DNA of 42,383 bases from Candidatus Parcubacteria bacterium (GCA_024654305.1 JANLIU010000014.1:1-42383); one strand, 5' to 3'. Positions 2,902 through 32,516 are shown, counted from the stretch's first letter. Numbers and translations are program-made. The notes: generated by a model from the sequence alone, not told the origin.

Positions 2902-4257
2902 TTATTTTTTAAGGGCAATGATGAGGTCGGACACATTAGAACCAGTATACCCGGTGCGGAGCGCATCGCCGGTCGCTGTAAAGAAATCATACGAACGGTG
3001 AGCATTGAGATATTCTTCAACCGATACATTTTTCGCGAGCGCGTGTACACGAGTCGTTTCGTCACTGATCGCACCGGCGAAATCAGTGTTGTCGTGGCCG
3101 TCGGAAGCGAACGGCATGATTAACTCATCTGGGTTGAGGTATTCAAGAGCGGCAAGCGCCATTTCTTGATTTCTCCCACCAGAGCCGGGAATTGATGGAC
3201 ACATGGTGTCCATCATGACGGTGCTTTCACCGGCGTAAAGAAGCGCTGTTTTCGCCGGTACATCGTGCAGTTTCTCTACAACGACGCGACCGGTACCACG
3301 CGCTTCTCCGTCAAAGTGGTCGTCGATAATGGCGGTAGCATATCCGCGCTTTTCCGCCTCATCTTTCATTGCGGCAAGAGCGTCCTGGCTTGAAAGAAAG
3401 AGTACATTAGCTACACGGTCAAAATATTTCTGTTCCTTCGGTGTCTCCAAGAACTCGATATTCGCCGAAGCCGTGATGTCGTACTTCGCGAGGATTGCCC
3501 GCGCATCATCCACGGTTGATGAGTCGAGTACGGTCGGACCCGATGCGATGAATCCGATATCGTTTCCGGGTACATCAGACACGATGAGAGAGACAACTTC
3601 AGCGGGATATGCCGCTTTCGCGAGCGCGCCGCCGCGCGCGAGCGAGATATGTTTGCGCACGGTATTGATGTCTTGTATCGTCGCGCCCTTTGCGGTGAGT
3701 TCCCCGAAGAGTGTGCTTTCATCGAGACAGGTCATCGGCGCGTCATGGAGACAGAGCAGGGTAGAGCCGCCGCCGGAGATGAGCATGATGACGAGATCGC
3801 TCTCGCGGCGTTCGGCGAGGAATTCAATGATGCGCTTGGTCGCGGCTTCATTCACCTCGCTCGGCAAGGGATGCGTGCCGACAAACATTTCGATTTTTCC
3901 CGATGAGGACACATCTCGCCCCGTTAGAGACAAGGACTCGGAGAGTCCTGGCCGACTTCCAGTCGGCGTCTCTAACGGGGCAAGCGCGATGCCGCCGGTA
4001 AGCCGTTCGCCCAGGAGCTCTTCAAGAGCCGTCGCTGCAGCGAACGCGCACTTGCCGACGCCGACGAAGAATATGCGCCGCCCGAGAAGCGAGTACGTTT
4101 TTCCTTCACTGCGCAGTTCGTCGTTCAGAATGCGAAGCTTGCGCTCCAAAGCCGCGCCTACATTTATAGCGGCGTAGCCCGCTTCTGCGATTTCGAGCGC
4201 ATCAGTACGCAATTCATTTTCGGCAAGCGCTTCGAAGTTCTGTATGCGGTGGCCCAT
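2902..4257 (-). CDS. Glycerate 2-kinase (DUF4147 + MOFRL domains)
   Basis: Blocks VGVGKCAFAAA, ISGGGSTLL, INTVRKHISLARGG, SLIVSDVPGNDIGFIASGP, GGRNQEMALAA and TGYTGSNVSDLIIAL align along the whole length with TM1585-type glycerate kinases. I chose the start MGHRIQNF (ATG at 4257-4255) over the track start at 4398, whose extra 47 aa look non-coding. Confidence 0.8.
   Translation of the reverse strand: MGHRIQNFEALAENELRTDALEIAEAGYAAINVGAALERKLRILNDELRSEGKTYSLLGRRIFFVGVGKCAFAAATALEELLGERLTGGIALAPLETPTGSRPGLSESLSLTGRDVSSSGKIEMFVGTHPLPSEVNEAATKRIIEFLAERRESDLVIMLISGGGSTLLCLHDAPMTCLDESTLFGELTAKGATIQDINTVRKHISLARGGALAKAAYPAEVVSLIVSDVPGNDIGFIASGPTVLDSSTVDDARAILAKYDITASANIEFLETPKEQKYFDRVANVLFLSSQDALAAMKDEAEKRGYATAIIDDHFDGEARGTGRVVVEKLHDVPAKTALLYAGESTVMMDTMCPSIPGSGGRNQEMALAALEYLNPDELIMPFASDGHDNTDFAGAISDETTRVHALAKNVSVEEYLNAHRSYDFFTATGDALRTGYTGSNVSDLIIALKK
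3918..3981. repeat. 64-nt palindromic mini-element inside the glycerate kinase CDS. It has a 14-bp terminal stem and two internal 7-bp hairpins.
   Basis: GCCCCGTTAGAGAC (3918-3931) is the exact reverse complement of GTCTCTAACGGGGC (3968-3981). The interior holds AGGACTC-gga-GAGTCCT and GCCGACT-tcc-AGTCGGC. It encodes the extra segment ..LETPTGSRPGLSESLSLTG.. relative to the equivalent loop of TM1585-type glycerate kinases. The CCCGTTAGAG/CTCTAACGGG core recurs at 19128-19177. Confidence 0.8.
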
Positions 4258-10204: not shown

Positions 10205-10609
10205 ATGCCTATGTCAGCCCATTTTGGGGAACACATCACTGTCGACGGCTACGGAGGCGATTATGACCGACTCAATGACAAAGAAGCAGTCTTCTCTTGT
10301 CTCACGGGACTTTGTGATGCACTCCGGATGCGCCCTCTCAGTAAGCCTCATGTGCAGGTCCACTCTGCTCCAGATAATCACATAAAAGATCCAGGTGGCT
10401 GGAGCGGTATCCTCGTGATTGCCGAGAGTCATATCAGCATCCATACTTTCCCAAAGCGTCGCTTCGTTTCAGCCGATGTTTATACTTGCCAGAACGGTAT
10501 TGATGTTGACTTCATCATTGATTATTTCAAGAAGAAATTTCAGCTTGAAGATGTGGAAACGCACTTCATAAAACGCGGGCTAAAATATCCGGAGCACAAT
10601 TTACTCTAA
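10205..10609 (+). CDS. speH: S-adenosylmethionine decarboxylase proenzyme (pyruvoyl-dependent, small bacterial/archaeal class)
   Basis: 134 aa. The self-cleavage and active-site block VIAESHISIHTFP (E-S cleavage site), the DVYTC motif and the overall length match SpeH/SpeD class 1 AdoMetDC. Confidence 0.8.
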   Translation: MPMSAHFGEHITVDGYGGDYDRLNDKEAVFSCLTGLCDALRMRPLSKPHVQVHSAPDNHIKDPGGWSGILVIAESHISIHTFPKRRFVSADVYTCQNGIDVDFIIDYFKKKFQLEDVETHFIKRGLKYPEHNLL

Positions 10610-10814: not shown

Positions 10815-10843
10815 TTGCAGACTCTGCAGTATTGTCGTATTAT
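10815..10843 (+). promoter_or_regulatory. Candidate promoter of the peptide/rSAM cassette
   Basis: TTGCAG (10815-10820), a 17-nt spacer, then TATTAT (10838-10843). It lies about 70 nt upstream of the peptide start codon in an AT-rich spacer. Confidence 0.45.
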
Positions 10844-10915
10844 CTCAAACGGATGTTTTGCTGAATCTTTGTTGAGGGTCCTCAGCAGCAGTGAAACTCT
10901 AATTAGGAGAAAATC

Positions 10916-11035
10916 GTGATTATACGCCCAAAACCATCGGACTATGTCCGTCTGTTGCAAGGCACAAATGCCAATGCCGCTGTAGGCCGTTGCGGGAAAT
11001 GCTCCGGCCGGTGCGCCAGCGTCGAACGCAAGTAA
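10916..11035 (+). CDS. Unannotated 39-aa Cys-rich peptide, a putative RiPP precursor
   Basis: GTG at 10916 lies 6 nt after AGGAG (10905-10909). Translation is MIIRPKPSDYVRLLQGTNANAAVGRCGKCSGRCASVERK, ending at TAA (11033-11035). It sits 101 nt upstream of, and co-oriented with, a radical SAM/SPASM gene, and is too short for the ORF track. Confidence 0.6.
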   Translation: MIIRPKPSDYVRLLQGTNANAAVGRCGKCSGRCASVERK

Positions 11036-11057
11036 CGCGCCGTTCCGTTCGGTTGAA

Positions 11058-11095
11058 GGGTGGGAGACAATCGTCTCTCGCCCTTTTCTTCTTTC
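11058..11095 (+). terminator. Intrinsic terminator or attenuator between the peptide ORF and the rSAM gene
   Basis: GGGTGGGAGAC-aatc-GTCTCTCGCCC (one G.U pair and one mismatch), followed by TTTTCTTCTTTC. Confidence 0.55.
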
Positions 11096-11136
11096 TAATT
11101 TAGAAAATCGCTCATTGATAATGTCAGGAGGGTGTC

Positions 11137-12483
11137 ATGCAACTATCGCGTTATTGTAAAACCTTGGAACGAAATGGAGTAACATCGGTCTTTCACTCGC
11201 TTAAGCCAGAACCTTTTTTCTTGCCCACTTCTGAATGGCAAAAAATGTTCGAGAGTGGCAATTGGAACGATGAAGTCAAAGAAATCATGTTGGAAAATGG
11301 TTTGTTGGTAACGGATAGTTCCGCTGACGAAAAGTATCGCGGACGCATCAAGTCAGAATTCGTTGATATTAAGATGGTCCCGATACTTTATCTCGTCCTC
11401 ACGAAAAACTGCAATCTTAGTTGCCGGCAGTGCTTCCAGTACGAGAGACATCGCCAGAAACTCGCTCCATTGCCTATGATGACTATCGAGACCGCTGTTG
11501 CAGGTATCGACAGCTTCGTTCGTCATCTGAAGCATAGCGATGGCAGTCAGCAATACAAGACACAGATATTCTTGTATGGTGGCGAGCCGTTCCTTAACTG
11601 GAACGTATTCCGTGGTGCGGTGGAGTATATCGAGTCGTTGAGGGGCTCCACGTTGCCCGAAGACGTAGAAGTGATGACCGTGACCAATGGAACATGTATA
11701 CGAGAGTCTCATGCGCGCTTCATGGTTGCGCATGACATTCGAGTAGCACTCTCGGTCGATGGTCCTAAGGAGGTCAATGACAAGTTTAGAGTCACCACCA
11801 AAGGGCGAGGCACATTCGACTGTATCGAACGCGGATTGAGGCTACTTCAGAAGTTTGGTGTCAAGACGACTCTGTCAGTCACCATTACTCCGAGCATCGC
11901 TTCGCGTCTTGTCGAGATTGTACGTTGGGCGCATGACGACATGCGTGTTGAGGCCATTAGTTTCAACATGATTGGCGGGAGCAGTTTCGACCGTGTTGCA
12001 AGTATGACTCGCGCGCAATACGACGAGGATGTCACGACGAGTATCATCAAAGCCTTCAAGGAGGCACGCGAGCTTGGGTTGTATGAAGACAGGATTGCTC
12101 GCAAGGCAGAAGGGTTCATTAGCCATAAGTTCAACGCAGTAGATTGTGCAGCAGTCGGGAATCAGATCGTCGTTCAACCTGACGGAAGGATTGCCTATTG
12201 CCACGCGTCAGAAGAATACAATGGCGGGTCAGTCTTCGATGTCAACTTCTTCGTGTTCGATGACCCGGGCGTGGCGATATGGAAACAGTCTCTGCCAATC
12301 AATAATGAACTCGGCTGCCAAGATTGTTCTGCAATCGCAACGTGCGGTTATGGATGCTTTCATCACGTTCAAGAACTCGGAGGTTCTCCACTTGAGAAAC
12401 GTGACGAGCAATACTGCCTGCACAATCGCCGGACGTTCGAGTTTTTGGTCTGGGATTTGTTCGAAAAAACACAAGCATCATGA
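11137..12483 (+). CDS. Radical SAM / SPASM-domain peptide-modifying enzyme
   Basis: 448 aa with RBS CAGGAGG. The CxxxCxxC cluster is at C92/C96/C99 (TKNCNLSCRQCF), followed by a GGEPFL SAM-binding block. The C-terminal SPASM pattern is complete: CAAVGNQIVVQPDGRIAYC (G-x4-C), CQDCSAIATCGYGC (C-x2-C-x5-C-x3-C, nt 12316-12357) and a final YC. A roughly 90-aa N-terminal extension precedes the radical SAM core. Confidence 0.85.
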   Translation: MQLSRYCKTLERNGVTSVFHSLKPEPFFLPTSEWQKMFESGNWNDEVKEIMLENGLLVTDSSADEKYRGRIKSEFVDIKMVPILYLVLTKNCNLSCRQCFQYERHRQKLAPLPMMTIETAVAGIDSFVRHLKHSDGSQQYKTQIFLYGGEPFLNWNVFRGAVEYIESLRGSTLPEDVEVMTVTNGTCIRESHARFMVAHDIRVALSVDGPKEVNDKFRVTTKGRGTFDCIERGLRLLQKFGVKTTLSVTITPSIASRLVEIVRWAHDDMRVEAISFNMIGGSSFDRVASMTRAQYDEDVTTSIIKAFKEARELGLYEDRIARKAEGFISHKFNAVDCAAVGNQIVVQPDGRIAYCHASEEYNGGSVFDVNFFVFDDPGVAIWKQSLPINNELGCQDCSAIATCGYGCFHHVQELGGSPLEKRDEQYCLHNRRTFEFLVWDLFEKTQAS

Positions 12484-12508
12484 GCAGGATCGTTCCCGCT
12501 CTTTTACA

Positions 12509-12540
12509 GGGACGCCCTAACAGGCGCCCCTATTATTTTG
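12509..12540 (+). terminator. Terminator-like hairpin after the rSAM gene
   Basis: GGGACGCC-ctaaca-GGCGCCCC (one mismatch), followed by TATTATTTT. Confidence 0.35.
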
Positions 12541-13278
12541 TATACTGATCGTAAGATGAAAGAATTTAAAACACCAACTATAGAAGTCGTCCTAGATAAG
12601 AAATGGGATAAGGAAGTCCTCACATACTTCATCGATGAAAAAGACCAAGAGTACGATTTCGGTTACGATCGTATAGCTTCTCTCCATCCTAGTATCGCGT
12701 CTATACGGGGAAAGAGTGACGAAGAGAAATTAGCAATCGTAACGCCGTATGTTGAAGATTACTATGCAGAACATCAACAAGATATCGTTGGTGCTAAACA
12801 GGAGATGGCGAACATATGGAAGTCTATAGCGGTGGAATATCTCATCGAGATAGAGAAAATATTCGGCGCACTTGATTTCTATAAACCAACTAAAATTACG
12901 GCGGCACTATCTATAGCTAGAGCGGGCGTTATTGGAGAGGATAATGCGAGTTTCCAGATCTGGTACAAAACAACCAAAGAACCTGCGGAAGTTCGACGGC
13001 ATTTCGCCCACGAAATTCTCCATTTCTTTTACTATGCTTACCTCGAAGAAAAAGGCCTTTCGGCATTAAAAAAAGACTGGGACAAGGCAGAAATATTCAA
13101 TGTTGTTATCTTGGGATTGCCGCAGTTTGTTTCTTTGATAGGGAAGCCAGATTTGGGTTACAAGCAACACGAGAAGCATTTTCCGTACTACCGGAATCTT
13201 TGGGCTGAAAGTGAGGATCTTGACGACTACCTTCTCCGGTCCGAACGAGTATCTGGTGATGCTATAATCTACTCATAG
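12538..13278 (+). CDS. Hypothetical protein with an HExxH zinc-metallopeptidase-type motif (DUF2268-like?)
   Basis: 246-aa ORF with a TTG start at 12538 and an alternative ATG at 12556 (MKEFKTP). The only clear motif is RRHFAHEILHFFY (HExxH). There is no signal peptide. The gene is visibly AT-richer than the flanking genes. Confidence 0.55.
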   Translation: MYTDRKMKEFKTPTIEVVLDKKWDKEVLTYFIDEKDQEYDFGYDRIASLHPSIASIRGKSDEEKLAIVTPYVEDYYAEHQQDIVGAKQEMANIWKSIAVEYLIEIEKIFGALDFYKPTKITAALSIARAGVIGEDNASFQIWYKTTKEPAEVRRHFAHEILHFFYYAYLEEKGLSALKKDWDKAEIFNVVILGLPQFVSLIGKPDLGYKQHEKHFPYYRNLWAESEDLDDYLLRSERVSGDAIIYS

Positions 13279-13295
13279 AGGTATGGACAAGAAAT
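13279..13295 (+). repeat. Right copy of the 17-nt direct repeat, AGGTATGGACAAGAAAT
   Basis: Identical to 10690-10706. It includes the ATG of the small TM ORF at 13283. Confidence 0.7.
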
Positions 13296-13411
13296 CAAAA
13301 ATCCTATTCACGCTACTTTTTATCGCCGTTGCCGTGTCGGTATACCTCACCTACGACCGTACTATCGTGCGACACGATTTTGAGACTTTTGATTCATCAA
13401 TAGAGCCCTAA
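13283..13411 (+). CDS. Possible 42-aa single-pass membrane mini-protein
   Basis: MDKKSKILFTLLFIAVAVSVYLTYDRTIVRHDFETFDSSIEP has a basic N-terminus followed by one TM helix. The RBS is weak, and the stop overlaps the convergent DHS-like gene by 4 nt. Confidence 0.35.
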   Translation: MDKKSKILFTLLFIAVAVSVYLTYDRTIVRHDFETFDSSIEP

Positions 13412-14514
13412 AGATCGAGAAGCACTGCGGCGATCCACGGGAACGCTACGGTCACGTCGCTCTGGATGATCTGGTAATAGCTCTCGGTCGAGAGCTTGTC
13501 CCAAGTTATTTTTTCCTTACCTCCGGCGCCGGAATAGGAGCCATACGACATAGGCGAGGATCCAATCTCGATAAAACCCTCCCAGTCTCTTACCTTGCCG
13601 TCGACTTTCAGATCACTCTTTAGGAACGGCACAACGCAAATAGGGAAGTCTGCCGAAATGCCTCCGCCAAGTTGCAAGAAGGCGATGGAGGCATCTTTGC
13701 TTTCTTTCATATACCAATCAGCCATAAGGTGGAAATATTCCATGCCGCTTTTCATAACATTGCCGTCTAAGACAACTCTGCCTTTTTCTTTATGTGGACC
13801 GTCGTACGTGTAGCTGGCAAAAATATTACCCATACTGGAATCTTCAAATCCGGGGACAATGATGGGAATATTTTTCTCAAATGCCGCATACGTCCAGCAA
13901 TCGTCGGGATTAGCTTGGGGATCGGGCTGTATCAATTTTTCCTCGAATAACCTGCGGAAGTATTCGTGTGGGAAATATTTTTCATTTTTATCTTGAGCCT
14001 CTTGCCACATCCTTAGCAAATGCGGCTCCATAATGCGCACGCTCTCATCTTCTGGCAAGAAGGTATCGGTGATCCGGCGAAGGCCGGCATCACGCAATTC
14101 CGCTTCCTGCTCCGGGGTCAGCTCGGTATAGCGAGGAATATTGGCGTAGTGCGAATGGGCGACATAGCGGTAATAGGATTCCTCATGGTTGGCGCCAGTG
14201 GTGGATATCAGATGCACCTTATCCTTTCGTATGAGTTCGGCGAGCACGACGCCAATTTGGAAAGAGCTTAGGGCGCCTGCTAGGGTAATGACCAATTTTC
14301 CCCCGTTCATCAAATGATCTTTCAGCCACAAAGCCGCTTCCATAGTTGAGCCGCCGTTGCAATGCAGAAGCGTTCTTTCTGCAAAGGTGCTCACCGGCGC
14401 AGAACTTCCTTTTATATTCGCGCTCAGTGTACCCACTGCTTTAATATCATCCGGTACAATGAGCTTCTGTAGCCCCGGTGAAAGTTTGTCCAGTGTGCTT
14501 TTCTTCATATGCAT
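13408..14514 (-). CDS. Deoxyhypusine synthase family protein (DHS-like, possibly a homospermidine-synthase-like enzyme)
   Basis: 368 aa. The blocks TLAGALSSFQIGVVLAELIRKDKVHLISTTGANHEES, LQLGGGISADFP and SYSGAGGKEKITWDKL parallel the DHS blocks (SnliSsG.R..i..L.....vD.ivtTaGg.EeD; GGGv.KHh; SGA.p.EavSWGKi). Confidence 0.65.
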   Translation of the reverse strand: MHMKKSTLDKLSPGLQKLIVPDDIKAVGTLSANIKGSSAPVSTFAERTLLHCNGGSTMEAALWLKDHLMNGGKLVITLAGALSSFQIGVVLAELIRKDKVHLISTTGANHEESYYRYVAHSHYANIPRYTELTPEQEAELRDAGLRRITDTFLPEDESVRIMEPHLLRMWQEAQDKNEKYFPHEYFRRLFEEKLIQPDPQANPDDCWTYAAFEKNIPIIVPGFEDSSMGNIFASYTYDGPHKEKGRVVLDGNVMKSGMEYFHLMADWYMKESKDASIAFLQLGGGISADFPICVVPFLKSDLKVDGKVRDWEGFIEIGSSPMSYGSYSGAGGKEKITWDKLSTESYYQIIQSDVTVAFPWIAAVLLDL

Positions 14515-16219: not shown

Positions 16220-18004
16220 ATGATTTCTGAGAAGAAAAAGCCCGCACGGGTCTGGCCCGTGCTTCGCGCCTATGGCAAAGCGGCGCTTGTGTATCCGTGG
16301 TCACTCTGCGGGGCTGTTGTTGCTGCGATAGCTATCGAGGTAGCAAATGTTGTCGCGCCCCTCTATTTGCGCCAATTCATTGACCTGCTCTCGGGAGGCA
16401 CGCCGACGCAGGAGGTCGTAAGGGCGATTTTCATAGCGCTCCTATTCTTCACAACGACAAATCTTGTGAGCTGGCTCGCCCAGCGGCTGCGCCTGTTTGC
16501 GGTCAACAAGTTGGAATCGAGGACGATGGTTGACCTTTACCAGAACGCTTTTGACTACCTGATTAGGCATTCGCACGAATTTTTCATTTCAAACTTCACT
16601 GGCACGCTCACGCGCCGCGTAACGCGCTACGCCCGCGCGTTTGAGCAAGTGTTTGATACCATGCTCTTCAATTTCTTTCCCGCACTTCTGTTTGCGGTCG
16701 GGATTATCGGCGTGCTCTCCATGCGTAGCGTTCTCTTAGGTGCGGGACTCTTTGTGTGGACCGTCGTCTTCGTGTATCTACAGTTTCGGATGATGCTCAA
16801 GCGTCAGCCGCTCCGGATCGCTCGTACCGAGGAGGACAGCCGAGTGACCGGCTTCCTCTCTGACGCAGTGCTGAATCACTCCACGATAACCGCATTTGCC
16901 GCGGTGCCGTTTGAGAGTTTGCGTTTTAGAGATACGATTCAGCGCTGGTACGTGGCGCTGAAACGCGTCTGGGACGCCGACCTGTGGGTCTACGGCATAC
17001 AAGGACTTCTCGCGGTCGGTATAGAATTTGCGCTCCTTGCCGGCGCAGTGTTGCTCTGGCAGAAGGGTCTCGTAACGGTGGGCGATTTCGTGCTTATCCA
17101 GATTTATATCCTGGGACTCTTCAACCGTATCTGGAATATCGGACAAAATATGCGCCAGCTCTATGACGCGTTTGCCGACGCGACTGAGATGCTGGACATT
17201 ATGGAACTGCCGCACGAGATTAAAAATGCGCGAGACGCGGAACCGCTTGTTGTAAAAGAAGGCGCGATCACGTTCGACCATGTGCACTTCGAGTACCGCG
17301 ACGGGCATTCTTTGCTGAAAGATTTCAGTCTTGAAATACAGCCGCGCGAAAAGATAGCGCTCGTCGGTTCCTCGGGTGCGGGGAAATCCACCATTACGAA
17401 ACTCCTGCTCCGTCTTTATGAAGTCGGGAGTGGCACTATCAGTATCGACGGCCAGAATATCGCGCAGGCGACGCAAGAGAGCCTGCGCCGCGCCATCGCA
17501 TTCGTACCGCAGGAGCCCATGCTCTTCCATCGCTCGCTCATGGACAACATTCGTTATGGTCGGCAAGACGCGACCGATAAAGAGGTCATGGAAGCGGCGA
17601 AGCAGGCACACTGTCACGAGTTCATTAGCCAGTACCCGGAAGGGTTCAACACGATGGTTGGCGAACGCGGTGTGAAGCTCTCTGGCGGCGAGCGCCAGCG
17701 AGTCGCTATTGCTCGCGCGATTCTTAAAAATGCACCGATACTCGTGCTGGACGAAGCGACCTCAAGTTTGGATTCCGAATCCGAACGGCTCATCCAGGAC
17801 GCACTCCTCCGGCTGATGGAAGGGAAGACGGTCATCGCCATCGCGCATCGGCTCTCCACCGTGATGCATATGGACCGGCTCATTATTATAGAAAAGGGTT
17901 CGGTCATCCTCTCTGGCACGCACGAAGAATTGCTCTCGCACGAAAGCAATCTCTACAAAAAACTCTGGGAGATACAGGCAGGTGGATTCCTCCGGAAGGA
18001 CTAG
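16220..18004 (+). CDS. ABC exporter, fused permease and ATPase (MsbA/multidrug-type, type I exporter)
   Basis: 594 aa. A six-helix N-terminal TMD is followed by Walker A GSSGAGKST, signature LSGGERQR, Walker B ILVLDEATS and an H-loop AHRLST. Confidence 0.85.
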   Translation: MISEKKKPARVWPVLRAYGKAALVYPWSLCGAVVAAIAIEVANVVAPLYLRQFIDLLSGGTPTQEVVRAIFIALLFFTTTNLVSWLAQRLRLFAVNKLESRTMVDLYQNAFDYLIRHSHEFFISNFTGTLTRRVTRYARAFEQVFDTMLFNFFPALLFAVGIIGVLSMRSVLLGAGLFVWTVVFVYLQFRMMLKRQPLRIARTEEDSRVTGFLSDAVLNHSTITAFAAVPFESLRFRDTIQRWYVALKRVWDADLWVYGIQGLLAVGIEFALLAGAVLLWQKGLVTVGDFVLIQIYILGLFNRIWNIGQNMRQLYDAFADATEMLDIMELPHEIKNARDAEPLVVKEGAITFDHVHFEYRDGHSLLKDFSLEIQPREKIALVGSSGAGKSTITKLLLRLYEVGSGTISIDGQNIAQATQESLRRAIAFVPQEPMLFHRSLMDNIRYGRQDATDKEVMEAAKQAHCHEFISQYPEGFNTMVGERGVKLSGGERQRVAIARAILKNAPILVLDEATSSLDSESERLIQDALLRLMEGKTVIAIAHRLSTVMHMDRLIIIEKGSVILSGTHEELLSHESNLYKKLWEIQAGGFLRKD

Positions 18005-18141: not shown

Positions 18142-18213
18142 GCCGATGTAGTTCAATGGTTAGAACGAGGGACTCATAAGCCCTAGACAGTGGTCCGATT
18201 CCACTCATCGGCA
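18142..18213 (+). tRNA. tRNA-Met (anticodon CAU). It could instead be tRNA-Ile2 if C34 is lysidinylated.
   Basis: Cloverleaf read by hand. Acceptor GCCGATG/CATCGGC, D arm GTTC-AATGGTTA-GAAC, anticodon loop CTCATAA, T arm AGTGG-TCCGATT-CCACT, discriminator A. CCA is not encoded. Confidence 0.85.
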
Positions 18214-18438
18214 CTACTTCGCTCCGTTCGAAAACGGAGCTACGAAGTGCACGCACACGACAATTTTGAGGGATTTTGGTAGGATAGGAAAACTGCGGCT
18301 GTATGAGGCATACAGCCGCGCGTTCGGCGAAACGGTGCCTACGGCACCGGCCCGCTCAACCGAAAGGAAAATCATTTTAGCCCAACGATTTTCCTTTCGT
18401 TCTTGCGTGCCGCGCTTCGCGCTCGTTTGCCTCACTTT

Positions 18439-18510
18439 GCGGCTGTAGCTCAACGGTAGAGCACTACCTTGTCACGGTAGAGGTCGTGGGCTCAACACCC
18501 ATCAGCCGCG
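18439..18510 (+). tRNA. tRNA-Asp (anticodon GUC)
   Basis: Acceptor GCGGCTG/CAGCCGC, D arm AGCTCAACGGTAGAGC, anticodon stem-loop CTACC-TTGTCAC-GGTAG, T arm GTGGG-CTCAACA-CCCAT, discriminator G. Confidence 0.85.
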
Positions 18511-18519
18511 CATTAGCGA

Positions 18520-18598: not shown

Positions 18599-18868
18599 AT
18601 GAAAATGCATACAAACAAAGGGAAGCTGATTCGCCGGCTCAAGATTATTGAGGGACAGGTGCGCGGACTGCAAGATATGCTCGAGAAAGATACGTACTGC
18701 ATCGACATCATCACCCAGACCTCGGCGGTGAAGCAGGCGCTTTCCGGTGTGGAGGACGCGCTGATGGAGAATCATCTCGCCACCTGCGTTGTGCATCAAA
18801 TGAAGAAAGGGAAGGAAAGCACGGCAATAGGTGAGATACTGAAGGTGTATCACCTCAAGCGTAAATAA
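18599..18868 (+). CDS. csoR: CsoR/RcnR-family metal-sensing transcriptional repressor (copper-type C-H-C ligand set)
   Basis: 89 aa. [40 protein letters not shown] is the DUF156/CsoR signature with Cys, His and Cys ligand positions. Confidence 0.85.
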
Positions 18869-18873
18869 TTTTT

Positions 18874-21246
18874 ATGGAACAAACTTTTCGCATTCGCGGC
18901 ATGCATTGCGCCTCGTGTGCAAGCATCATTGAAAAGTCCCTTGGGAAAGTAGATGGCGTGGATTCTATCGAAGTGAACGTCGGCACCGAAAAGGCAAAAA
19001 TTTCTTTTGACGAATCAAAAACGAATGCACAGGCGCTTTCAAAAATCATCGAGCCGCTCGGGTACACACTGGTCATGTCGGATGCGTTGAATGCCGTTTC
19101 ATCGATGCAAACTGCAACAGAAATGGGTCCCGTTAGAGGCCGCGAGGGCACGCAGCGGTCCTCTGCCTCTAACGGGATGGGCATGTCGGAAAGTGAGCAC
19201 GCCGCGCATCTCGGGCTCAACCAATCCAAAGCAGAAAAACTTACCGAACTCGCTTCAATGAAAACGAAAATAATCACCATCATGCCGATGGCGGTTATCG
19301 CTATCGTCCTTATGACATGGGACATCCTCGCGGAATTTGACCGCGTAGCAGCTGCGCCTGCGGCGTGGGGTGCATCATTTCGTTATCTGCTGGCCGTCAT
19401 GGCGACGTATGCGCTCTTTGTGGTCGGTCAACCATACCTTCTCGGCTTCTATCGATTTTTGCGTTACGGCAAAGCGAATATGGATTCACTCATCGGCATC
19501 GGCACGTCTGCCGCATTCCTCTACAGCATCACCGTTACCGCATTTGCTGAACAATTGAAGGCGTATGTGAATGTCAGCGTCACCTATTTCGACGTCGCCA
19601 TCGTCGTCATTGCATTTATCACGCTCGGGAAATATCTGGAGGCGCGCGCGAAGATAAAGACCGGCGATGCGATAGAGAAACTGCTTAATTTGCAAGCGAA
19701 AACCGCGCTCGTCATTCGCGACGGAAAAGAAATTGAGATACCGGTTGATCAAGTGGTGCACGGCGACATCATCATCGTGAAGCCAGCGGGGAAAATCCCC
19801 GTGGACGGAGAGCTCACTGAAGGCACTTCGTATGTGGACGAATCAATGGTGTCCGGCGAGCCGGTGCCGGTAGAAAAAAATGTCGGCGACAAGGTTGTGG
19901 CGGGGACCATCAACACCACCGGAGCATTTACATTCAAGGCGACAAAAGTCGGCTCTGAAACGCTTCTCGCACATATTATTACGATGGTTGAAGAGGCACA
20001 GGGAAGCAAAGCGCCCATTCAGGCGCTCGCGGACAAGATCTCCGGCATTTTTGTGCCGGTCGTATTGGTCATAGCATTCGTCACGTTATTCGCATGGCTC
20101 GGTCTCGGCACGCCTTCACTTGGATTCGCGCAGGCGCTCTCCTTCGGTCTCGTGTCGTTCGTCGGCATCCTCGTCATTGCGTGTCCGTGCGCGCTCGGTC
20201 TCGCGACCCCGACCGCCATCATTGTGGGTGTCGGAAAAGGCGCGAAGGAAGGCATTCTCATCAAGGACGCGAGCACGCTCGAGAAACTACACAAAGTGAC
20301 GACCGTCGTCGTTGATAAGACGGGGACCATCACAAAAGGGAAGCCTGAACTGATCTCGATTCAAAATGAGAGCAGAATGAGCGAAACGGAACTCATCGCC
20401 GTCCTCGCCTCGCTTGAAAATAAATCAGAACATCCCATCGCGAGCGCCGTCGTCTCATACGCCAAAGGACATTCCATTAATCTCCGCGCCGTGGAGAACT
20501 TTCAAGCGCTCAAAGGCAAGGGCGTGCAGGGTACTATCGACGGTACGGAGTATTTCGCCGGCAATGCGCGGCTCATTGGGGAGCTTTCACTCCGTCTTGA
20601 CGCGAACGCCATCGCAAAAAAAACCAGCGAAGGCAAAACTCCGGTCATTCTCGCGACTGCAAAAGAGATCATTGGTACCGTGCTCGTCGCCGATGCGATA
20701 AAACCGGAAGCAGTGGAGGCCGTCGCCGCTCTCCACAAGCTCGGCATACAAGTGGTGATGCTCACCGGCGACAATGCGCAGACCGCGGCGTACATCGCGG
20801 AACAGGTTGGTATTGATGAAGTGGTAGCGGAGGTCATGCCGGAAGACAAACTTATCAAGGTCAAGGAGCTTCAGACGGACGGTCGCGTGGTCGCGATGGC
20901 GGGCGACGGTATCAACGACGCGCCCGCGCTCGCACAGGCGGACGTTGGCATCGCGATGGCGACGGGGACCGATGTCGCCATTGAAAGTGCGGGCATCACA
21001 CTTCTCCACGGCGATATCAGCAAACTCGTGAAGGCGATACGGTTGTCCAAATTCACGATGCGCGGCATCAAACAGAATCTCTTTTGGGCGTTTGCTTATA
21101 ATGTTATCGGTATCCCGCTCGCGAGTGGTCTCTTCTATCCGCTTTTCGGCTGGCTGCTTTCGCCGGTCTTTGCGGGACTCGCGATGGCATTTTCAAGCGT
21201 GTCGGTCGTGACGAACTCACTTCGCCTTAAGACAAAAGCGTTGTAA
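18874..21246 (+). CDS. copA: Copper-translocating P1B-type ATPase
   Basis: 790 aa. N-terminal HMA domain [15 protein letters not shown]-type actuator block (SGEPVPV), CPC motif [12 protein letters not shown], phosphorylation site VVDKTGTIT, and hinge [12 protein letters not shown]. Confidence 0.9.
19128..19177. repeat. 50-nt palindromic mini-element inside copA, in the linker between the HMA domain and TM1
   Basis: TCCCGTTAGAGGC (19128-19140) is the exact reverse complement of GCCTCTAACGGGA (19165-19177). It shares the CCCGTTAGAG/CTCTAACGGG core with the element at 3918-3981 and encodes ..[17 protein letters not shown].. in frame. Confidence 0.8.
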
Positions 21247-28289: not shown

Positions 28290-29555
28290 ATGAAAATATT
28301 TAAAAGTGTTTCAGTAGTTGCATCCGTTTCTTTCGCTCTTGGTCTCATCATTCCGATGACGGCTCTCGCGGCAAGTCCATCGGCTGTGAGTCTCGGAACG
28401 GCGGGGGATTATGCGATTCTTGCAAAGACTGGAGTTTCAACGACCGGAGCAACCTCTGTTGTCGGAAATATAGGGCTTAGTCCGGCGGCGGCGAGCTACA
28501 TAACCGGATTTGATTTAATTCTTCCTGCGGCCGGCGCATATTCCACGTCGGCTCTGGTGACCGGAAAAGTATACGCACCGGGTTATGCGGACCCAACCCC
28601 GGCGAATCTCACCACCGCGGTACTTGATATGCAAAATGCATACACGGATGCTGCGGGACGTGCGGCTGATACTACCGAGCTCGGTGCCGGAAATATCGGC
28701 GGACTGACGCTCGTCTCCGGCGTCTACAAGTGGGGAACTGGCGTCACCATCCCGACTGATGTGACGCTTTCGGGTAGTGCGAATGACATCTGGATTTTCG
28801 AAATAGGACAAAATCTCGATATCAGTTCCGCGACGAAGGTAGTTCTCGCCGGCGGTGCTCAAGCCAAGAACATTTTCTGGCAGGTCGCCGGGCAGGCAAC
28901 ACTCGGAACGACTGCGGTCATGAATGGAAATATCTTGGGCCAGACAGCTATCGTGATGAATACCGGGGCCGTATTGAACGGCCGTGCATTGGCACAAACT
29001 GCCGTAACGTTAGATGCGAGTACGGTGACTGCGCCTACTTCCTCGGCTTCCACGCCGGCGCCGGCTACCTCAGCCACACCCGCAACTCCGTCAAGCTCAA
29101 CCTCCTCAGATACCTCCGCAACTCCTGCGACCTCCGCAACTCCGTCTGCTAATGCGACCTCGGCAAATTCTGCCTCAGGCCTTACCGCCCCGCAGATACA
29201 AGCCATTCTTGAGGTGCTTGCGTCATTCAATGCTGATGCGTCAGTCATTGCGAACGTGCGCGCCTCGCTCGGCGGTACGACCACGGGCTCGGTCACGAGC
29301 GCCGCGGTGCACGCATTCCAAGCGAATCTCACTGTCGGCTCTCTCGGCAGCGAGGTGAAAGCGCTCCAAGAATACCTGAACGCACACGGCTATACCGTTG
29401 CGAATAGTGGGGCAGGGTCTCCGGGGAACGAGACGACAACCTTCGGTGCCGCGACGCGTGCCGCTCTCGTGAAGTATCAGCAGGCGAAAGGCATCACGCC
29501 GGCCGTCGGATACTTCGGTACTTTGACGCGCGCATCGGTCAACGCGAGCGAATAA
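28290..29555 (+). CDS. DUF3494 (ice-binding-like) surface protein with a Thr/Ser/Pro/Ala linker and a C-terminal PG_binding_1 peptidoglycan-binding domain
   Basis: It has a signal peptide. LGTAGDYAILAKTGVSTTGATSVVGNIGLSPAAASYITGF and NGRALAQTAVTL are DUF3494 hallmarks. The C-terminal GSEVKALQEYLNAHGY..FGAATRAALVKYQQAKGI is PG_binding_1. Confidence 0.75.
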   Translation: MKIFKSVSVVASVSFALGLIIPMTALAASPSAVSLGTAGDYAILAKTGVSTTGATSVVGNIGLSPAAASYITGFDLILPAAGAYSTSALVTGKVYAPGYADPTPANLTTAVLDMQNAYTDAAGRAADTTELGAGNIGGLTLVSGVYKWGTGVTIPTDVTLSGSANDIWIFEIGQNLDISSATKVVLAGGAQAKNIFWQVAGQATLGTTAVMNGNILGQTAIVMNTGAVLNGRALAQTAVTLDASTVTAPTSSASTPAPATSATPATPSSSTSSDTSATPATSATPSANATSANSASGLTAPQIQAILEVLASFNADASVIANVRASLGGTTTGSVTSAAVHAFQANLTVGSLGSEVKALQEYLNAHGYTVANSGAGSPGNETTTFGAATRAALVKYQQAKGITPAVGYFGTLTRASVNASE

Positions 29556-30887: not shown

Positions 30888-32516
30888 ATGAAAATATCGA
30901 ACAAGGTTTCCATAGCCGTAGTATCTGCCTCACTGTTCCTTGGTCTCGTCGGTCCGATTGTTGCACATGCGGCGACATCACCATCTCTTGGAGATGCGGC
31001 AACTTTTTCCGTCATAGCCCAAACGTTAATTACAGGAACAACTCCTTCATCGGGTATATCGGGTGATGTTGGGATGAATGAAAGTGCTGCTAGTATTACT
31101 GCATTAACAACTGCAATGGTAAGCGGCACAATATATTCTAACCCTACAGGTAACACAGGCGGAGGTGCGCCCACGACACTCTTGGATGCTGATGTTCAGC
31201 CTAATCTCTCCACTGCATATGATTTCCTCGACACTGGTGGAGATAATGCAACTTGTACTAAGGCTCTTACTGGTGCTCTTGGCAGTGACACTGATGGACA
31301 AGACTTAGGTGGTCTTTCTCTCCCACCGGGTGTTTATTGTTCCGCTGGCAGCTACAATCTCACAGGAAATCTTACTCTTACTGGAACGACTGGTACCTGG
31401 GTTTTCAAGACAGTGTCAGGACTTACCACTGCAGTAGGTTCATCAGTTACTGGTGGTGACCCTTGTAATGTATGGTGGAGAATCGGGTCAGCAGCGGCTG
31501 GTCTCGGTAATTCCTCTACGTTTGTAGGAACAATCATCTCTTTGACGGGCATTACTTTTGGCACTAGCGTAACCTTAAATGGCCGAGCTTTAGCACTCGG
31601 TGCTGCTGTGACATTAAACAGCGGTGGTACCATTTCAGGACCGACTTGTGCGGCGGCCGTGGCGCTTTCAGGAGGAGTTCAATCTATTCCGCCAGTGTAC
31701 CCGCTTATCAATGTTACAAAAATACCAAGTCCTTTGAATTTGCCGGCAGGTCCGGGACCCGTCACCTACACCTATAAAGTGACGAACATAGGCGCAGTGG
31801 CTGTGTCGAATATAGAAGTCAAGGACAATAAGTGTTCCACGGTACAATTCGTTTCTGGCGATACCAACAAAGACGGACTGTTGGGTCTGACCGAAACGTG
31901 GACCTATAACTGTTTTAAAACAGTTTCAGAAACTGAAACAAATACAGTTACTGCCTGTGGTTCTGCCGCCAATGTCTCTAGTTCAGGAAGAATATGCGAT
32001 ACCGCACAAGCAACGGTTGCCGTCGGTGTGCCGCTAACGCCGCCATTGATCCATCTCGTAAAGGTACCGAGCGTATTCATTCTTCCCGCAGGCGGCGGAG
32101 CGGTTACCTACTCCTACACGGTAACCAATCCCGGTACGGTGCCCTTAAGCGATGTCAGCATCACTGACGATAAATGTACCGGTCTGCCGGGCCGTGTCGT
32201 CGGGCACCCCGGAGACATCAATAAAAATAACTTGCTAGATCCTGGTGAGACATTCCATTTCACGTGCCAAACGAATCTTATTCAAACAACAACAAACATC
32301 GGTACCGCTACGGGTCATGCGAATGGTTTTACTATCACCGATACCTCGCCTGCTACGGTCGTTGTTGTGCCGCCAGGTGTTGTCGTTCCGAAGCTGCCAA
32401 ATGCGGGACTTCCTCCGTATGGGACAAGCACCCCGCTGGATGCGGCACTCGCGGGCGGCATTCTCATGATGGTTCTGACCTCACTCGCCGTCATTCAGAA
32501 GAAACGCAAAATCTAG
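30888..32516 (+). CDS. DUF3494 (ice-binding-like) surface protein with two roughly 110-aa Cys-containing conserved repeat domains and an LPNAG sorting signal
   Basis: The signal peptide and the AATSPSLGDAATFSVIA block are paralogous to the gene at 29750. There are two repeats of the type ..P.G.G.VTY.Y.VTN.G.V..S...V.D.KC.. (TIGR01451-like conserved repeat). The C-terminal sorting signal is LPNAG, then a TM helix, then KKRKI. The last 34 coding nt (32479-32512) are identical to 30684-30717. Confidence 0.75.
   Translation: MKISNKVSIAVVSASLFLGLVGPIVAHAATSPSLGDAATFSVIAQTLITGTTPSSGISGDVGMNESAASITALTTAMVSGTIYSNPTGNTGGGAPTTLLDADVQPNLSTAYDFLDTGGDNATCTKALTGALGSDTDGQDLGGLSLPPGVYCSAGSYNLTGNLTLTGTTGTWVFKTVSGLTTAVGSSVTGGDPCNVWWRIGSAAAGLGNSSTFVGTIISLTGITFGTSVTLNGRALALGAAVTLNSGGTISGPTCAAAVALSGGVQSIPPVYPLINVTKIPSPLNLPAGPGPVTYTYKVTNIGAVAVSNIEVKDNKCSTVQFVSGDTNKDGLLGLTETWTYNCFKTVSETETNTVTACGSAANVSSSGRICDTAQATVAVGVPLTPPLIHLVKVPSVFILPAGGGAVTYSYTVTNPGTVPLSDVSITDDKCTGLPGRVVGHPGDINKNNLLDPGETFHFTCQTNLIQTTTNIGTATGHANGFTITDTSPATVVVVPPGVVVPKLPNAGLPPYGTSTPLDAALAGGILMMVLTSLAVIQKKRKI

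Follow-up and report, generated by a model that had tools for sequence, protein, structure and literature searches.

A candidate three-gene cassette for a Cys-rich modified peptide in Candidatus Parcubacteria and relatives, with a divergent FibroRumin-like radical SAM/SPASM maturase and a zincin-like partner

Radical S-adenosylmethionine (rSAM) enzymes with a SPASM domain that act on Cys-rich peptides belong to several curated families, of which FibroRumin (maturase TIGR04136, precursor TIGR04135) and SCIFF/CteB (TIGR03973/TIGR03974; PDB 5WGG/5WHY) come closest to the locus described here. SCIFF/CteB systems often have no dedicated transporter, PapB (freyrasin) and QhpD form Cys thioether cross-links, and EryP and AplP are M1 peptidases of lanthipeptide systems. 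No characterised ribosomally made peptide with post-translational modifications (RiPP) of the candidate phyla radiation (CPR) or Patescibacteria was found in the literature searched, in which surveys give only generic counts of 'ranthipeptide' biosynthetic gene clusters; a graspetide paper (PMC8939145) concerns a different, ATP-grasp system. We analysed a 42,383-nucleotide stretch of a Candidatus Parcubacteria bacterium (GCA_024654305.1 JANLIU010000014.1:1-42383; hereafter the window), which between positions 10,815 and 13,278 encodes a small Cys-rich peptide, a radical SAM/SPASM enzyme and a zincin-like HExxH protein on the plus strand. We hold it to be highly probable that these genes form one set and that the peptide is the substrate of the enzyme. 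It is also probable, with less assurance, that they constitute a RiPP cassette in which Cys thioether cross-linking guided by a RiPP recognition element (RRE) is followed by zincin cleavage and release of a small cationic peptide. Judged by sequence comparison, the cassette is a divergent CPR-specific variant of the radical SAM/SPASM Cys-peptide systems, nearest to FibroRumin, and no publication on it was found.

The precursor gene is left uncalled by automatic annotation in the window and is called only sometimes in relatives. As the original prediction for this DNA had read it, the open reading frame (ORF; 10916..11035) runs from a GTG start to a TAA stop (11033-11035), with a Shine-Dalgarno AGGAG (10905..10909) six nucleotides 5′ of the GTG, and encodes 39 amino acids, MIIRPKPSDYVRLLQGTNANAAVGRCGKCSGRCASVERK. 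No Pfam or NCBIfam model recognises the window peptide, nothing scoring above threshold, but the ORF is conserved in relatives. Between the window and the relative locus L002 (relatives' loci carry L numbers throughout) the ORF is 72% identical as against 62% and 41% for its flanks, and the nucleotide differences number 8, 5 and 21 at codon positions 1, 2 and 3, a distribution that argues for purifying selection on the ORF. The stretch GRCGKCSGRCAS differs between the two by nine synonymous and no non-synonymous changes. The AGGAGAA of the ribosome-binding site is kept in L002, and in most other loci the peptide ORF likewise has a similar site ahead of it. Between the precursor and maturase genes of the window lies a terminator- or attenuator-like hairpin (11055..11096) with a 14 bp stem, a 4-nt loop and a T-rich tail, and a GC-rich hairpin with a T-rich tail is found directly 3′ of the peptide stop codon in every CPR locus, the hairpin sequences themselves being unrelated. 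Conservation, codon-position bias and the conserved hairpin together indicate that the ORF is translated, is subject to selection and has a terminator or attenuator of its own, the classic arrangement of a RiPP precursor gene.

The window precursor can be divided into a leader of about residues 1-24, with the motif I-R-P-x-x-S-D-Y-x-R-L, and a core of about residues 25-39, RCGKCSGRCASVERK, with a net charge of +4. Residues P5, G24, C26, S30 and C33 are invariant in an alignment of 10 precursor sequences; in one added member (P0254) Ser30 is replaced by Gly. Across 24 aligned CPR precursors the leader follows the pattern h-h-x-P-x-Q-x-[D/A]-[F/Y]-x-A-L (h, hydrophobic) and the core the pattern G-[RK]-C-G-x-(C)-S-G-R-C, usually with K-S-A-x-R-R after it; these peptides contain two to four Cys, their cores carry net charges of +4 to +9, and their basic C-terminal tails vary in length. 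There is a subgroup with two Cys, of which GRCGGSGRCPSPKSA is a natural variant. A profile search recovered 17 family members for which public data contain a protein call, and no functional name is attached to any of them. A metagenome DNA-pattern scan for G-R-C-G-x-C-S-G-R-C was discarded as uninformative on the spread of the family: it returned at least 120 stretches, nearly all chance occurrences in GC-rich frames or long ORFs, and among the matches listed only L080 was a true member.

Genomic context was taken for twelve relatives of the radical SAM enzyme, ranging from 75% to 30% identity and all on independent contigs. The named relatives are Moranbacteria/Patescibacteria, which agrees with the small-genome CPR-type host proposed at the outset. 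A small ORF of the same design adjoins the enzyme gene in 10 of 10 relatives at 40-75% identity, its placement covering three gene orders and either strand: directly upstream of the radical SAM gene (L002, L004, L005, L009, L011, L012), upstream of the gene for the zincin-like partner (L013), or on the opposite strand and divergent from the partner gene (L007, L010). Leaving the window aside, a precursor lies beside the radical SAM gene in all 12 CPR loci, ten with the G-[RK]-C core and two with an alternative core, and a short precursor also adjoins the enzyme in a cyanobacterial locus. The zincin-like gene (about 230 aa) adjoins the radical SAM gene, upstream or downstream, in all 13 CPR loci including the window. 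The proposed association of precursor, radical SAM/SPASM maturase and HExxH protein therefore recurs in every CPR locus examined. A distant CPR clade (L014 and L015, approximately 33% identity) retains the zincin gene while its core differs (…DC[VC]C[YF]TSCTRC), the full precursor type being …PKPGRD[VF][AV]DC[VC]C[YF]TSCTRC(T) (L014 4790-4927, L015 3801-3935), which suggests that the enzyme-zincin pair diversified its substrates.

The cassettes of the relatives sit in differing housekeeping neighbourhoods, on contigs of 0.74-0.97 Mb. Four window genes considered as further members, namely an ABC exporter, speH, a 183-aa membrane protein and a 42-aa ORF, were rejected because they are missing from the relatives' loci; a histidine kinase and a deoxyhypusine-synthase-like gene are missing there as well. 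The MsbA-type exporter to which the original prediction had drawn attention is thus confirmed as a gene (16220-18004) but not as a conserved companion of the cassette. Because the flanking genes are not conserved with it, we take the conserved unit to be three genes, spanning approximately 2.4 kb in the window. In two relatives a DUF2130 protein is encoded just upstream of a zincin-peptide-rSAM cassette (L005 2177-3463, L009 2725-4008), directly adjacent in L009 and separated by one 157-aa ORF in L005; this adjacency probably reflects shared ancestry of related genomes rather than a fourth component.

The maturase gene (11137..12483) starts 101 nt 3′ of the precursor gene, with an AGGAGG (11126..11131) five nucleotides 5′ of its ATG, and encodes 448 aa. 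ATG 11137 is taken as the true start on the strength of homologues that cover residues 1-36, the AGGAGG site and the structural model; the automatic gene call (P0001, 412 aa) starts at Met37 and loses the first 36 codons (11137-11244), and thus the β-strands of the RRE. An alignment of 44 family sequences shows no variation at the CxxxCxxC cysteines C92/C96/C99 (nt 11410-11433) or at C337, C394, C397, C403, C407 and C427, and conservation of 90% or more at C355. The SPASM region (C337…C427, nt 12145-12417) reads C337-x12-G350-x4-C355, then C394-x2-C397-x5-C403-x3-C407, then C427, giving the seven-Cys signature. The radical SAM cluster and the seven SPASM cysteines first read from the DNA are thereby confirmed, including C-x2-C-x5-C-x3-C at nt 12316-12357, to which C394-C407 map. 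PF04055 matches the window enzyme with 56 bits, above its cutoff, whereas the Pfam SPASM model does not match it at E 0.1, the region aligning instead to the SPASM domain of the anaerobic sulfatase-maturating enzyme (anSME).

An AlphaFold2 model of the enzyme (predicted local distance difference test score, pLDDT, 93.3) has an N-terminal β3α3 domain of RRE topology, comprising three predicted strands (residues 7-12, 15-20 and 23-30) and three helices (31-40, 45-53 and 61-76). Its best fold matches are the thioether synthase CteB (E 1.4e-20, TM-score about 0.7 over the full length) and TigE, both aligned full length including the RRE. Alignments with these RRE-bearing enzymes comprise 458-479 columns, as against only about 390 with anSME and ChlB, which have no RRE. 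The Pfam PqqD model does not match the window enzyme; from the predicted structure, approximately residues 1-78 (nt 11137-11370) would form a PqqD-like RRE, the function earlier suggested for this N-terminal extension.

Searched against NCBIfam, the enzyme scores highest with FibroRumin (216.4 bits), followed by PapB (130), nif11 (112), QhpD (108), DynA (96), CcpM (92) and SCIFF (86.8). All of these are peptide maturase models and all scores are below cutoff. The check proposed with the original prediction points to RiPP maturases throughout. Assignment to a non-RiPP clade, which had been named as the outcome that would speak against a RiPP locus, finds little support, since the anSME model TIGR03942 scores 91.7 bits against a cutoff of 349 and the small ORF is adjacent; no sulfatase is encoded in the window neighbourhood or in the relatives' loci.

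TIGR04136 is the enzyme's best model by approximately 86 bits and aligns to it nearly end to end, N-terminal domain included. It is also the top model for every member of the clade, with a continuum of scores from 188-253 bits in CPR clades to 386 bits for the cyanobacterial P0080. As a control we used the curated FibroRumin locus of Campylobacter sp. RM16187 plasmid NZ_CP012551.1, whose tandem precursors score 55 and 62 bits with TIGR04135. Compared with the curated maturase, the window enzyme shows 28% identity across 448 aa, from end to end (E 5e-63), in both systems the precursor lies immediately upstream of the maturase, and the leader motif [D/A]-[Y/F]-x-x-L is common to both, although the hhalign alignment is weak (E 0.0095). 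However, the window enzyme falls well short of the TIGR04136 cutoff of 400 bits, with which the curated control scores 707, and the window peptide gives no TIGR04135 match at E up to 10 (cutoff 45 bits). The peptides of L011 and of the cyanobacterial locus L016 do match TIGR04135 weakly (17 bits, E 0.004). These two matches and the enzyme's best model together suggest that the cassette is a divergent sister of FibroRumin. The view that the precursor resembles no nameable family therefore holds with regard to SCIFF (TIGR03973) but has to be relaxed with regard to FibroRumin.

The two systems differ most clearly in their cores and companions. The curated FibroRumin precursors (MLKTTSEAYSELFGLI…CIGQCTGCMCSCRCSC… and …TFDYKKLFGLI…ARCACVSCNSCTCACSC…) have cores with 7-8 Cys in dense C-x-C to C-x3-C repeats and an acidic tail, whereas the CPR cores have 2-4 Cys in a GRC…GRC arrangement and a strongly basic tail. 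The curated locus comprises tandem precursors and a UvrA-like ATPase without a zincin, whereas the CPR cassette has a zincin. The ATPase gene (L137, NZ_CP012551.1, 6385-8478), encoding a 697-aa UvrA-like ABC protein (TIGR00630 312 bits, sub-cutoff), overlaps the maturase stop codon. Self-resistance to DNA-binding natural products is a known role of UvrA-like proteins, and this neighbour offers a lead on the target of FibroRumin-type peptides. In the Oscillatoriaceae-type cyanobacterial contig L016, an unannotated precursor (2923-3102, MNTMTPSLKYNGFAIPSAPDYTKVIAKIGAETSNQLASTCSCNGCKCKSNRSPRQSLTW) that shares the leader motif (FAIPSAPDYTKVI) and whose core is rich in Cys lies upstream of the near-FibroRumin maturase noted above; this locus is without a zincin and adjoins Ca-binding-repeat-like proteins and a non-ribosomal peptide synthetase fragment.

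With SCIFF/CteB the cassette shares the architecture of RRE, radical SAM domain and seven-Cys SPASM domain, and a short Cys-rich precursor encoded upstream, in addition to the fold match with CteB. It differs in the enzyme score (86.8 bits against the TIGR03974 cutoff of 425), in the number and spacing of Cys and in its zincin partner, and the window peptide gives no match to TIGR03973. In the same peptide-family scan the SCIFF peptide of L001 (5622-5780), which served as positive control, scored 51.8 bits. L001, a Caldisericota metagenome-assembled genome, was the sole match of a contig search with the single radical SAM protein and was set aside as a distant, ordinary SCIFF locus. PapB and QhpD rank second and fourth among the enzyme's NCBIfam matches, but their cutoffs (340 and 453) are far above its scores, the core has no repeats of the C-x3-D type and the locus has no QHNDH subunit context.

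The third gene (12556..13278) encodes a zincin-like protein of 240 aa. The original prediction had given it 246 aa, corresponding to an alternative TTG start at 12538; its HEILH motif is indeed present (nt 13009-13023), but both homologues and gene caller favour ATG 12556. In 119 partner sequences H152, E153, H156, W175 and E179 are invariant. Glu179 (nt 13090-13092), a putative third metal ligand, lies 22 residues past H156 in a predicted helix (175-186), and HExxH-x22-E is a gluzincin pattern. A word-index search found 298 clusters at 90% identity, all 'hypothetical' and without a Pfam domain, the named homologues coming from Moranbacteria, WWE3 or Patescibacteria. An exhaustive search extended this to 1,176 representatives at 50% identity (E ≤ 0.001), 582 of them at E ≤ 1e-10, while a search on phages gave no match and a profile search against PDB sequences no credible one. 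Sub-threshold matches among the 119 members are to DUF3267 'putative zincin peptidase' (58 members, best E 5e-4), DUF5700 (18) and DUF2268 (4), and the weak Foldseek matches of the partner model (pLDDT 95.7) are nearly all M1 gluzincins, among them the lanthipeptide peptidase EryP. With EryP and AplP the partner has in common an HExxH motif with a downstream Glu and a gene linked to a RiPP maturase; it differs in being a single domain of 240 aa with no significant fold or sequence match and in having its own Pfam-less family. We conclude that the partners constitute a new family of small zincin-like proteins that may well act as peptidases; a role in RiPP leader removal is plausible, and we regard that assignment as evenly balanced.

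From these features the following pathway can be proposed. The precursor would be transcribed from its own start, and the hairpin past its stop codon would probably let part of transcription reach the enzyme genes. The N-terminal RRE of the maturase would bind the leader motif hydrophobic-hydrophobic-x-P-x-x-x-[D/A]-[F/Y]-x-x-L, the radical SAM site would abstract a hydrogen atom from a core carbon, and two auxiliary SPASM [4Fe-4S] clusters would aid in joining the thiols of Cys26 and Cys33, and of Cys29 where present, to core carbons. The product would carry intramolecular sactionine- or ranthionine-type thioether rings in the G-R-C-G-x-C-S-G-R-C stretch. The cytoplasmic zincin-like partner would then cut off the leader, the likeliest site being behind the invariant Gly24, and so release a ring-constrained peptide of 15-31 residues with a net charge of +4 to +9. 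The thioether chemistry we put somewhat above an even chance. Cyclophane chemistry is argued against by a core without aromatics, in which Cys are the sole invariant side chains (Ser30 being nearly invariant).

Several observations weigh against this pathway. None of the curated equivalog cutoffs is reached by the enzyme, so that homology does not allow its reaction to be assigned, and no publication was found on FibroRumin, the nearest curated family. The ring pattern would not be uniform, given the two-Cys precursor subgroup and the member without Ser30. For the partner, Pfam and NCBIfam give nothing above threshold and Foldseek no significant PDB neighbour of its model (best E 1.9, TM-score about 0.3), while the cyanobacterial and curated FibroRumin loci without a zincin indicate that a peptidase is not universally needed in this enzyme lineage. 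Finally, in the relatives' loci neither an exporter nor an immunity gene accompanies the cassette consistently, an uncommon situation for an antimicrobial RiPP that is secreted.

The most radical alternative, that the small ORF is a chance frame and the radical SAM protein a non-RiPP enzyme of sulfatase maturation or cofactor biosynthesis, could appeal to the mere 39 codons, the GTG start and the lack of any database model for the window peptide. Against it stand the retention of the ORF in all relatives' loci with codon-position bias, Shine-Dalgarno site and terminator, the 17 database members, the low anSME score without a sulfatase nearby and the predicted RRE; we regard it as extremely improbable and, given the conservation data, effectively refuted. 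A different reaction on the core, namely conversion of Cys to formylglycine as by anSME, epimerisation, or a C-C, C-N or C-O cross-link without sulfur, is a more substantial rival. The sub-cutoff scores would accommodate it, as would the high ranking of anSME, by structure and by sequence, among the matches through the SPASM region and the fact that TigE, a top fold match, is a cyclopropyl synthase and not a thioether synthase. The substrate motif of anSME is C/S-x-P/A-x-R, which the core does not contain, the reactive side chains that are invariant in the core are all Cys, with no aromatics present, and the top-scoring families (FibroRumin, PapB, QhpD, SCIFF and CcpM) all act on Cys-rich peptides, so that we consider such a reaction unlikely, even though sequence is a notoriously poor guide to the function of radical SAM-SPASM enzymes (PMC10288494). 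The HExxH protein, for its part, might not be a leader peptidase at all, serving instead to shorten the basic tail at the C-terminus, to confer immunity to the mature peptide or degrade it, or as a non-catalytic scaffold, with the leader removed by a housekeeping protease or never. Its lack of a significant match to any characterised peptidase, the enzyme relatives outside CPR that have no HExxH gene and the length-variable tail, which could be processed, are all compatible with this. Catalysis is nevertheless argued for by the HExxH motif and the Glu 22 residues on, invariant in 119 sequences, and by weak similarities that point consistently to zincin families; and strict adjacency to the radical SAM gene in all 13 CPR loci, together with an invariant Gly just ahead of the core that resembles a cleavage determinant, makes a role other than leader removal rather unlikely in our estimation.

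Instead of a secreted antimicrobial, the cassette might make an intracellular or housekeeping modified peptide, for instance one that binds metal or nucleic acid, a cofactor precursor, or a SCIFF-like product. No transporter or immunity gene is conserved, and the very small genomes that retain the cassette have it in varied housekeeping neighbourhoods. The charge of the core is extremely positive (+4 to +9), and a UvrA-like ATPase, a type of protein that often protects against DNA-binding compounds, is encoded in the curated FibroRumin locus. Core sequence and Cys number nevertheless diversify between clades, as they do in secreted RiPPs, and generic exporters encoded elsewhere could serve, so that we see an intracellular product as a minority prospect, albeit a serious one. 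The absence of export and immunity genes and the retention of the cassette in genomes of less than 1 Mb keep an intracellular or host-interface role in play. Going further, the cassette might be a lineage-specific, minimal and exporter-free RiPP system of Patescibacteria in which a FibroRumin-like radical SAM/SPASM enzyme and a small zincin convert a precursor of 39-59 aa into a tiny, highly cationic thioether peptide with an undescribed ring pattern, the zincin representing a new class of dedicated RiPP leader peptidase and the product perhaps acting intracellularly or where symbiont and host meet, for instance through contact with nucleic acid or the host surface, rather than as a classical bacteriocin. 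Taken jointly, these propositions are doubtful, and we advance them only tentatively.

Upstream of the precursor gene, a candidate promoter, TTGCAG-N17-TATTAT (10815..10843, plus strand), was read by eye; its -35 hexamer is weak (three of six matches) and a consensus promoter scan left it unflagged. An Rfam scan of the locus (E up to 1) turned up neither a riboswitch nor a leader RNA in the upstream spacer of 300 nt. The cassette is flanked by two polyamine-metabolism genes, speH (SAM decarboxylase, 10205-10609, plus strand; TIGR03330 79.9 bits, over cutoff) and a deoxyhypusine/homospermidine-synthase-like gene (13408-14514, minus strand), neither of which flanks it in relatives, and this suggests that it was inserted into a polyamine locus. 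A 42-aa ORF (13283-13411, plus strand) with a hydrophobic, transmembrane-like segment (MDKKSKILFTLLFIAVAVSVYLTY…) starts 5 nt past the zincin stop codon; none of the relatives' loci has a conserved counterpart, and the ORF is probably unrelated or window-specific. Elsewhere in the window, tRNA-Met and tRNA-Asp (18142-18214 and 18439-18511) lie just 5′ of genes for a CsoR-type metal-sensing repressor (18599-18868, plus strand) and a copper P-type ATPase of the CopA type whose N-terminus carries a CopZ-like domain (18874-21246, plus strand), a pair that is ordinary copper efflux unrelated to the cassette. Two plus-strand ORFs (28290-29555 and 30888-32516) resemble ice-binding proteins (NF045625, 228 and 45 bits, cutoff 400), a similarity that hints at a cold habitat.

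On present evidence the cassette is not categorically new in chemistry or architecture. As compared with known systems, what appears distinctive is the cationic core with 2-4 Cys together with a zincin partner family that has no Pfam model. If the proposed pathway is true, it would provide the first function for this large family of zincin-like proteins. The cassette also illustrates how automatic annotation misses such systems, leaving the precursor uncalled and losing the RRE of the maturase to a wrong start codon. Being small, comprising three genes and widespread in the CPR radiation, it is suited to testing by heterologous co-expression, and it is a possible experimental foothold on the NCBIfam-curated FibroRumin branch of radical SAM/SPASM maturases. 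That organisms with approximately 700-900 genes keep it without transport or immunity genes raises the question of the peptide's purpose. Such testing would be informative both for CPR biology and for two unannotated protein and peptide families.

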